DNA of 64,000 bases from an uncultured Spirochaetota bacterium (GTDB lineage Bacteria > Spirochaetota > Spirochaetia > SZUA-6 > Fen-1364), in NCBI GenBank assembly GCA_963745235.1, contig CAVUXE010000075.1, forward strand, positions 30,283 through 94,282. The letters run 5' to 3'. A program made the translations under genes and the position numbers. The notes beneath the pieces were generated by a model. That model did no database searches, was not told where the DNA came from, and saw nothing but the letters and a program-made list of their open reading frames with translations. Numbering within the stretch: the stretch's first letter is position 1; each line of letters starts with the position of its first letter. Positions 204 through 1,046 of this stretch are shown here, piece by piece.

Positions 204-378
204 GCACGGACCTAACATGTGTCCTTGCGGTACGCGATTTGATTGTGACACCCCTGCTGAAGGTGATCATGCCCCAATGACGGCGCATAGATGTTTCCGG
301 TAGGACGGGCTCAGTTGATGTAGGGACAGGAGGAGAAAGAAACTGGATTATCTTCAGACGCGAACGCTGTTATAGATG
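204..378 (+). ncRNA. IS110/IS1111 right-end non-coding region, putative bridge/seek RNA
   Basis: ~175 nt non-coding after transposase stop; CCTAACAT (211-218) is the reverse complement of ATGTTAGG (376-383) and ATAGATGTT (287-295) is identical to 372-380. Confidence 0.55.
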
Positions 379-690
379 TTAGGCAGTCGATCCTCGTCTT
401 GCCGAGCGTCTCGACCCGGAGAGTGAAGCTCCTCGCGCCGAATCCCTCCAGAAGCCCTGCTGGGTTTCCCCCCGGCCGCCTGCGATGCTGCGTCGAGATT
501 TGCTCAACAGTGAGCGAAAGCGCGGCGATCGCGAAAGCAGTATGCCCTCGAGGTCGGCATCATCCGCCGGGGCGACAATCACTGCCACAGCCCGACCGTT
601 GCGGGTGATTACGACCGGGCCGGAGGTCTCGGCCTCCAGCAAGTACGCGCTGAACTTGGCCTTGATCTCGGCCAGAGAAGCAACAGTCAT
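379..690 (-). CDS. Phd/YefM-family antitoxin
   Basis: MTVASLAEIKAKFSAYL...GPVVITRNGRAVAV Phd motif; start overlaps upstream toxin stop. Confidence 0.85.
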   Translation of the reverse strand: MTVASLAEIKAKFSAYLLEAETSGPVVITRNGRAVAVIVAPADDADLEGILLSRSPRFRSLLSKSRRSIAGGRGETQQGFWRDSARGASLSGSRRSARRGSTA

Positions 691-1009
691 GGTACGAACT
701 CCTTGCCGGCAATGAAAAGCCGAGCGTGGTCTTTGACCCCTATTGCCAGAATCCAGACCTGCCGGGATTCCGCCTCGACCTCGTAGAAGACACGAAATCG
801 ACTGTCGGGGCCACAGCGTAACTCCCAGGTAGCACCGTAGGGGCCAGGAGACCGCTCCAGCGGCTTGCGGTTGGAGTTTCCTGCCGCGGCGCGAAAGACA
901 GTTGTTCCTTGACGGTCTCCCGCAACAGGCGCAGGTATCTCCGGTCTATGGCGTTGATGTGCGCATGGACTTCGGGAGCGTAGGCAAGAGATCGAGTACG
1001 TCCAGCCAC
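687..1009 (-). CDS. RelE/ParE-family toxin (frameshift near 875)
   Basis: N-part MAGRTRSLAYAPEV... (740..1009 ORF) joins C-part NRKPL...WELRCGPDSRFRVFYEV...VWILAIG (687..1046 ORF); RelE-like pattern. Confidence 0.75.
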
Positions 1010-1010
1010 A

Positions 1011-1046
1011 GACTATAATTATAGTCAGACAGCATTCCGGTATCAA
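1011..1046 (-). promoter_or_regulatory. sigma70 promoter with overlapping perfect palindrome (TA operator)
   Basis: Minus strand TTGATA-17nt-TATAAT (1046-1018); perfect 16-bp palindrome GACTATAATTATAGTC at 1011-1026. Confidence 0.75.

Follow-up and report, generated by a model that had tools for sequence, protein, structure and literature searches.

An IS1111-type insertion sequence end encoding a probable guide RNA, apparently programmed for integron attC sites, in an uncultured Spirochaetota bacterium

The element end and its structured RNA

The window analysed here is a stretch of 64,000 nucleotides from an uncultured Spirochaetota bacterium (genome G000, contig C75, positions 30283-94282). 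The insertion sequence that concerns us lies across its left edge and extends upstream of the window; positions there are given on locus L001, in which position equals window position plus 1500. The window opens with the C-terminal end of an IS110/IS1111-type transposase frame on the plus strand (1-203, stop codon TGA at 201-203), the gene being broken upstream of the window. A structured RNA gene, also on the plus strand (186-315), overlaps the last transposase codons, and a toxin-antitoxin pair follows the element on the minus strand. We put the probability at about 90% that positions 186-378 are the right-hand non-coding end of an IS1111-type insertion sequence that encodes a guide RNA (seekRNA or bridge RNA). 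The sequence for which this RNA appears to be programmed is, as a well-supported reading of sequence comparisons, the R'' (5') end of attC sites of integron cassettes in the organism and its relatives.

An earlier note, made from the letters of the window alone, had drawn attention to two short matches, and both are present. CCTAACAT at 211-218 is the reverse complement of ATGTTAGG at 376-383, and ATAGATGTT occurs twice, at 287-295 and 372-380; the heptamer GTTAGGC stands at 378-384. When 5000 dinucleotide-preserving shuffles of 204-365 were compared with the junction (366-390), a direct match of at least 9 nucleotides (nt) arose in 33, an inverted match of at least 8 in 101 and the two together in none. 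GTTAGGC alone is unremarkable, with one occurrence in the window against 2.65 expected.

We aligned the first ~131 nt after the transposase end from 29 copies of the element, and used this alignment both for structure prediction with RNAalifold and for a covariance model, R1. RNAalifold predicted helices P1 to P4, in which 18 of 24 pairs have compensatory changes. Adding a fifth hairpin gives 25 pairs in five helices, and 91.4% of alignment cells are paired compared with 34-40% when partners are slid by one to three columns. Double-sided changes were found in 111 cells and in at most 30 in the slid controls, and none of 500 shuffles reached the observed values. All 29 sequences retain one G-U pair in P2, in keeping with a structure of RNA and not of DNA. 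Model R1 scores the window's copy at 118.5 bits (this sequence is in the training set) and matches 48 of 60 related loci, many of them outside the training set, but not the Klebsiella IS110-family copy used as a negative control. A search of both strands of L001 against Rfam 15 at E<=10 gave no match, so the RNA lies outside every curated family.

The target-binding module (193-258) is closed by P1 (193-201 with 250-258), in which all nine pairs show double-sided changes, and by P2 (205-208 with 244-247), which is 99% paired in the 29 copies. Inside its loop stands hairpin P3 (219-233), with 94% of cells paired and compensatory changes in three of four pairs; in the window's copy it survives through two G-U wobbles, as read from the alignment. 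Hairpin P4 (271-284) is 96.6% paired, with one pair broken in the window's copy. Hairpin P5 (297-309, CCGG/CGGG) is paired in 79% of cells and has no double changes, which is weaker support. The earlier note had called for a test of fold and covariation, and the matches it singled out do lie in loops between these helices.

We also compared contigs of public sequencing runs with L001:400-2300. X2 is DNA from a soil metagenome, and X17-X19 come from RNA libraries, whose contigs are no proof of transcription and in which uncovered parts of the region are uninformative. One X19 contig of a related copy stops one base past the transposase stop (L001 1704, window 204) and continues as sequencing-adapter letters, hinting at a defined RNA end there. 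Further copies or fragments of the RNA stand near full elements in attC arrays (L031 386-516, L067 2944-3073 and L043 1-34), suggesting tandem or nested insertions or decayed copies.

Guides, core and element ends

The right ends of ten Spirochaete-clade copies align to ...ATAGATG and diverge fully within a few flank bases; among copies of the same lineage the flanks diverge right after TG, the last bases of the element and the core dinucleotide (377-378, plus strand). Uninterrupted attC ends beside inserted copies are exactly left flank-TG-right flank, reading CAGCGAGT-TG-TTAGGC in L032 and L033 and CAGCGAGA-TG-TTAGGC in L079. Since such sites contain a single shared TG, the element ends at window 378, within the range of 375-380 proposed by the earlier note, with one TG common to target and element and no target duplication.

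Subterminal inverted repeats lie just inside the ends. The right repeat is ACGCTGTTATA (364-374, plus strand; GCGCTGTTATA in relatives), and its left partner TATAACAGCGC is missing from the window's copy. In Spirochaete copies the repeats are TATAACAGCGC and GCGCTGTTATA, of 11 bp, and in Chloroflexota and Actinomycetota copies they are 14 bp long. Outside them stand ATAA or ATCA on the left, GA on the right and the one shared TG, these lengths varying with the assignment of TG and the limits set for the repeats. IS1111 elements characteristically have subterminal repeats of about 11-13 bp, with 7 (or 6) bp beyond them on the left and 3 bp on the right. The transposase stop (203) is separated from the element end (378) by 175 nt, and in intact relatives ~85-90 nt lie between the left end and the start codon. 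Relatives carry a TTGAC(A/G) hexamer 18 nt from the right end, which in the circular form would come to lie 17 nt before the GATAAT of the left end, and the two may together form a junction promoter. The aligned position in the window's copy (355-360, plus strand) reads CAGACG in place of TTGACG or TTGACA.

The internal loop between P2 and P3 holds both target guides. The right-target guide CCTAACAT (211-218), on the 5' side of the loop (209-218), is complementary to the top strand at A376, the core bases T377 and G378, and TTAGG (379-383). The 3' side (234-243) carries the left-target guide CGATT (235-239), then the core TG (240-241) and AT (242-243), the latter identical with the first two bases of the element's left end.

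In nine Spirochaete-clade copies that have the 211-218 segment, its 8-mer complement to the junction is exact in five, 7/8 in three and 5/8 in one. Two copies in genome G023 differ at the matching position of guide and flank, CCTAAC standing with GTTAGG and CATAAC with GTTATG. Over the core G and five flank bases, 26 distinct pairs of right guide and flank are complementary at 6/6 positions in 16 cases, 5/6 in eight and four or fewer in two, and 6/6 complementarity was found in 16 of 586 cross-pairings. These results bear out the earlier assignment of 211-218 as a right-target guide. The left guide, compared with the five flank bases before TG in 16 distinct pairs, agrees at 5/5 positions in five, 4/5 in eight and three or fewer in three, with 5/5 in one of 234 cross-pairings. 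The left junctions of the copies in G023 (..CGATT-TG-ATAATA..) and G018 (..CGACA-TG-ATAATA..) each equal the segment in their own RNA. The earlier note had proposed a check for further guide segments matching the left flank and the left end; it had overlooked the left-target guide at 235-243, as it had the R'' identity of GTTAGGC and the defective state of the copy.

Copies from several phyla fall into at least nine target classes, each with a matching guide. Retargeted lineages pair GGATTTTC with GAAAATCC (L035), AATTTACAT with ATGTAAATT (L037), AGTATTAC with GTAATACT (L038), TTTCCCCATG with CATGGGGAAA (L044), CCTCGCATG with CATGCGAGG (L047), GAAGCCAT with ATGGCTTC (L051) and AGACACGTC with GACGTGTCT (L056).

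Some lineages show a variant register. In L035, L038, L056 and their relatives the base complementary to the core G lies two rather than three nt before P3, and CT replaces CA in the target loop; the guide register of these lineages is shifted by one, with U opposite the core T. L035 and L038 have CT in place of CA in the donor loop as well. An X19 contig, at L001 1740 (window 240), joins an element right end (...GCGCTGTTATAGA) directly to TGATTGTGACA.., which is the core plus the 3' part of the left-target-guide DNA. One copy may have inserted into DNA coding for the guide of another, since that DNA mimics the left half of the target, or the contig may be a cDNA chimera.

The 3' side of the donor loop (285-295, plus strand) carries ATAGA (287-291), the core TG (292-293) and TT (294-295), the last identical with the two flank bases next to the element. 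Of 33 copies, 28 have in this loop an exact repeat of the element's last seven bases, in keeping with the left-donor guide that the earlier note had placed at 287-295; in G018 the repeated sequence, inside the RNA and at the element end, is ATAGGTGTT. In 26 of these 28, the base that follows is identical with the first base of the flank, a handshake-like extension of the match. On the 5' side of the donor loop (259-270, plus strand; GAAGGTGATCAT), only ATCA is complementary to the core and left end, by eye. We considered a right-donor guide there and rejected it as demonstrated, only TCA or ATCA being constant and the remainder not tracking the left end.

In the mechanism that we propose, the RNA would fold into a module whose internal loop displays the two target guides. 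Segment 211-218 would pair with the top strand of the core TG and right target flank, and 235-243, having the sequence of the left target flank and TG, would pair with the bottom strand. The second loop would display a copy of the element's right end with TG (287-293) and, directly after it, two bases matching the right target flank. The DEDD transposase, together with the RNA, would align the circular element with its target and exchange strands at TG, leaving no target duplication, and the element would enter antisense to the cassette genes at the R'' end of attC. That the RNA is made, bound by the transposase and directs recombination we infer from published relatives.

The attC target and the integron context

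Read on the minus strand, GTTAGGC is GCCTAAC (378-384), the R'' (inverse core) box of an interrupted attC-like site, and it overlaps the stop codon (379-381) of a Phd antitoxin gene. We reconstructed empty sites for copies inserted at GTT-type targets, and six of 11 fold as imperfect palindromes of 116-156 nt closed by GCCTAAC..GTTAGGC. For comparison, an attC site is an imperfect palindrome of 57-141 bp, arranged R''(RYYYAAC)-L''...L'-R'(GTTRRRY) and placed downstream of a cassette ORF. Sites of the non-attC classes never fold with an AAC/GTT closing pair, a trivial control since they are without GTT. In L033 and L034, cassette open reading frames (ORFs) lie on the strand opposite the transposase, each stopping just before GCCTAAC; because of this arrangement, GTTAGGC on the element strand is the complement of the attC 5' (R'') box, with the element antisense to the cassettes. 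The earlier note had read the GTTAGGC flank as the integron core consensus GTTRRRY: the relation to attC holds, whereas the heptamer corresponds to the complement of the 5' box and not to the 3' core.

The window's genome contains an integron integrase on contig C9 (373 bits against a cut-off of 265 for TIGR02249) and a split integrase, in two pieces, on C5. Eight attC sites of one family are found in this genome, five on C9 at 240-251 kb, one on C2 and two on C55, and all end ..GACAACTGCAACGA(T/C)T-TG-TTA.. (also written ..CAACTGCAACGA(T/C)T-TG-TTA..). The programmed target is ..CGATT-TG-TTAGG.. (in a longer spelling, ..CAACGATT-TG-TTAGGC), and the site at C55:8126 matches the copy's left guide, core TG and TTAGG exactly. 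The left flank of this site is also the sequence of the left flanks of the G023 and G018 copies. Together with the folding of related sites and their uninterrupted ends, these sites and the integrase uphold the earlier claim of an attC-like target.

The integron regions of the genome are C9:236427-251300, C5:7100-8500, C2:~900 and C55:5993-8140, and an identical GTGTTAGGCGG site adjoins the integrases on both C9 and C5.

At the window's own locus the R'' box alone remains of the interrupted site. L001 73-189 holds another attC-like site, which is uninterrupted and has the same 16-nt end; its far box is atypical (GTTACAA). A strict scan for attC by pattern plus fold gave no result, and a relaxed duplex scan yielded 13 scattered hits on C75, a single one of them (C75:28855-28971) convincing; both scans are too crude to decide whether C75 carries an array. 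The window's site could be part of an attC cluster that has no integrase, or of a distant stretch of an array.

Toxin-antitoxin pairs are typical integron cassette content. The pair that abuts the element (379-1046, minus strand) is cassette-like, with a Phd/YefM antitoxin at 379-690 (PhdYeFM, 44.5 bits) and a ParE-like frame at 687-1046 (14.9 bits, below the cut-off). It opens a minus-strand run of toxin-antitoxin genes (379-2718) that continues with PIN plus RHH pairs at 1307-1969 and 2087-2718, and no clear attC was found between the PIN/RHH pairs. Upstream of the element are a DUF4258 gene and a small partner (L001 184-665).

Several observations weigh against an attC-programmed guide RNA at this locus. 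The copies in G001, G009, L052, L073 and L078 are inserted one mismatch off their guide, and no fit of guide and site was found in G002, L067, L072 and L077. The left target flank is deleted in the window's copy, so its left guide is uncheckable at its own locus; the model alignment marks two of its 25 pairs as non-standard, and P5 has one further mismatch by eye. A single-sequence fold of 185-320 is no more stable than shuffles (z = -1.14; 23 of 200 as good). A right-donor guide is not demonstrable, 3-5 nt being complementary, with no covariation, in six lineages compared by eye. The RNA-library contigs (X18 and X19 from related copies, X17 from the strain's junction) may stem from DNA or from read-through transcripts. 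Contig C75 has no match to TIGR02249 and, near the element, a single further attC-like site (L001 73-189).

Could the matches instead be features of the DNA ends, such as subterminal repeats, transposase-binding sites or a hairpin or terminator after the gene? Inverted repeats of this sort do exist in the element, the 9-nt direct repeat takes in the element end, and the fold of the single sequence is not significant. Yet segments 211-218 and 235-239 covary with DNA outside the element across at least nine target classes, which is not expected of the binding sites of a conserved protein. They also lie in loops between helices that show compensatory changes and one invariant G-U pair, and published experiments on family members (PMC11187229) show an RNA. 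We regard this explanation as very improbable. Chance is more improbable still, to the point of being negligible: matches of 8 to 9 nt are short, and GTTAGGC is no commoner in the window than expected, but the shuffles never yielded both matches and the segments covary in dozens of copies. A less improbable alternative, although in our judgement an unlikely one, accepts the element and the RNA and holds that the window's GTTAGGC is not an integron attC, being some other repeated palindrome or a chance match at a gene end. The missing integrase match on C75, simple scans that reveal no dense array, the half site that remains and the atypical far box of its neighbour would all suit it. Against it, the same 16-nt end (CAACGAT-T/G-TGTTAGGC) terminates attC sites next to the C9 integrase of the same genome and forms the left flank of the G023 and G018 copies, both flanking antitoxin genes have stop codons that overlap GCCTAAC, as is usual for cassette ORFs ahead of R'', and the neighbouring genes are of a kind common in cassettes. 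We therefore retain the reading of an IS1111-type guide RNA aimed at attC. On the points at which the earlier note's version of it was most exposed, namely where other copies end, whether their targets are unrelated and whether the matches fall outside loops, the outcome favoured that note.

The decayed copy, its lineage and known systems

Only the C-terminal domain of the window's own transposase scores (Pfam Transposase_20, 67.3 bits on a 206-aa frame, L001:1083-1703, the C-terminus of an IS110-family transposase). The gene starts at L001 717 and is split across at least three frames, and a 73-aa N-terminal frame has no domain match. An X2 contig has 64 letters between L001 1083 and 1084 that are absent from the window's copy, and an X18 contig of a related copy has seven additional letters near L001 922-929. 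Also missing from the window's copy are the ~26 nt with which the element begins, among them the left inverted repeat. The remnant meets the DUF4258 toxin-like gene at the breakpoint, L001 665/666; this gene lies on the opposite strand, has no start codon and matches its Pfam model only from position 7. X2 and X18 contigs that match rightwards from L001 666 are preceded by an intact left end with an attC flank (..AACGATT-TG-ATAATATAACAGCGC..). Because both the 26-nt left end and the 64 letters are present in metagenome contigs of related copies, the window's copy is defective. With a 64-nt deletion and frameshifts in the transposase, the left end lost and the -35-like hexamer mutated, it is a dead relic, unable to move. 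The left end with its inverted repeat is deleted jointly with the rest of the attC site and the start of the neighbouring DUF4258 gene.

In X2, three forms coexist over L001 513-951: one with the same truncated DUF4258/element junction as the window's genome, one near-identical copy whose left end is intact (two differences in 286 nt), and a contig whose match reaches L001 647 inside the DUF4258 gene before it departs into sequence unlike the window's locus. Several variants therefore coexist in this soil metagenome. In the assembled genome, DNA search and covariance model each found a single copy, a count limited by a genome 85.7% complete and by the frequent loss of repeats from such assemblies; other IS110-family genes there are 30-45% identical.

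Against NCBIfam NF033542, 'IS110 family RNA-guided transposase' (cut-off 140), the transposase of an intact relative (L017:1610-2668) reaches 195.3 bits; its Pfam scores are 48.8 bits for PF01548 (DEDD_Tnp_IS110) and 62.8 bits for PF02371 (Transposase_20). A DNA search of 61 genomes, the window's and 60 relatives, found matches in ten, G000 included. A protein-based scan with one genome per species yielded 59 loci with transposase identities of 44-80%, in metagenome-assembled genomes (MAGs) titled Spirochaetota, Chloroflexota, Actinomycetota, Acidobacteriota, Aminicenantes and others. No plasmid record among the 5000 best is more than 33.6% identical (tblastn) to the transposase of the intact relative, and records annotated as IS5075 or IS4321 are 23% identical. 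The lineage of the element thus appears not yet catalogued, and it is not represented above 34% identity in the plasmid collection. One plasmid match (H4, Klebsiella) was considered as an ISKpn4-type integron element and rejected, being an unrelated IS110-family copy beside IS903B; it is this copy that served as the negative control for the RNA model and as an outgroup.

The tree comprises 30 sequences, L067 and L078 being omitted as too short. Each non-attC target class forms one clade (trivially so for single-copy classes), and the attC copies form three supported subclades on an unresolved backbone. Since a single origin is possible on such a backbone, the tree does not decide how often attC targeting arose. 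The pairs L030/L031 and L032/L033 are near-identical elements (branch lengths 0.02-0.05) in MAGs titled Chloroflexia, Actinomycetota and Thermoleophilia, which reflects either recent transfer between phyla or binning error.

We offer as a tentative and rather doubtful proposal that the element represents an uncatalogued deep IS1111-like branch spread across soil and peat phyla, in which attC targeting was gained by guide programming independently of the clinical group of ISPa21, ISPst6 and ISKpn4, in which at least eight further retargetings occurred, and in which the left half of the donor is read through the long inverted repeat and not through an RNA guide. If true, such reading of a donor half would make this a hybrid of RNA-guided and protein- or repeat-guided recognition.

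IS110/IS1111 recombinases are under development as programmable tools for genome insertion, and natural series of retargeted guides show which positions bear specificity. The ~40 copies with at least nine target classes serve as a concise natural record of how the less-studied IS1111 architecture can be programmed, in which the register, core and handshake-like positions of the guides can be read from covariation alone. They show as well that cassette arrays of uncultured soil bacteria are struck at the same attC end as clinical integrons. For the window itself, they provide the annotation of a dead insertion sequence beside toxin-antitoxin cassettes.

The closest described systems are the IS1111 elements of the attC group (ISPa21, ISPst6, ISKpn4 and ISPa25). 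Siddiquee et al. (2024, PMC11187229) showed that in IS1111 elements the non-coding region after the transposase gives rise to a seekRNA, whose segment matching the top strand stands 5' of the one matching the bottom strand, with an overlap of the two in the target. According to the same study, ISKpn4, ISPst6 and ISPa25 aim at one end of attC, and members of the attC group are 46-86% identical to one another. For 93% of IS1111 elements, Durrant et al. (PMC11208160) predicted a bridge RNA in the right end. The present element shares with the attC group a long non-coding right end after the transposase, subterminal inverted repeats, the lack of target duplication, and a top-strand-complementary segment (211-218) that precedes a bottom-strand-complementary one (235-241), with an overlap on TG. 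The target is again one end of attC, with insertion near the 5' end and antisense to the cassettes, as PMC3001079 describes for ISPa21 and ISPst6. The RNA is also of similar size, ~130 nt structured or ~150 nt to the -35-like box, next to the 151 nt of ISKpn4 and 148 nt of ISPst6, both long seekRNAs, given in a figure legend of bioRxiv 2024.04.26.591405. It differs in its transposase lineage, which is distant as judged against the plasmid records, and in its hosts, which are uncultured soil and peat bacteria.

Handshake guides and a CT core are features of IS621. With the bridge RNA of IS621 and the IS110 group, the RNA described here shares a target loop and a donor loop, guides for both strands around a common core dinucleotide, and guide matches that extend two bases beyond the core into the partner DNA in the manner of handshake guides. 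In contrast, it lies downstream and not upstream of the transposase, has the right-target guide first in the target loop, uses TG as its core, has no detectable right-donor guide and is accompanied by long inverted repeats (11-14 bp). Group IIC-attC introns (PMC3001079) are likewise mobile elements that aim at the attC 5' end by base pairing, on the antisense strand, but they are ribozyme and reverse-transcriptase retroelements, with no DEDD transposase, circular intermediate or guide loops. The element thus fits a known kind of system, an RNA-guided IS1111 aimed at attC; what is new is its lineage.

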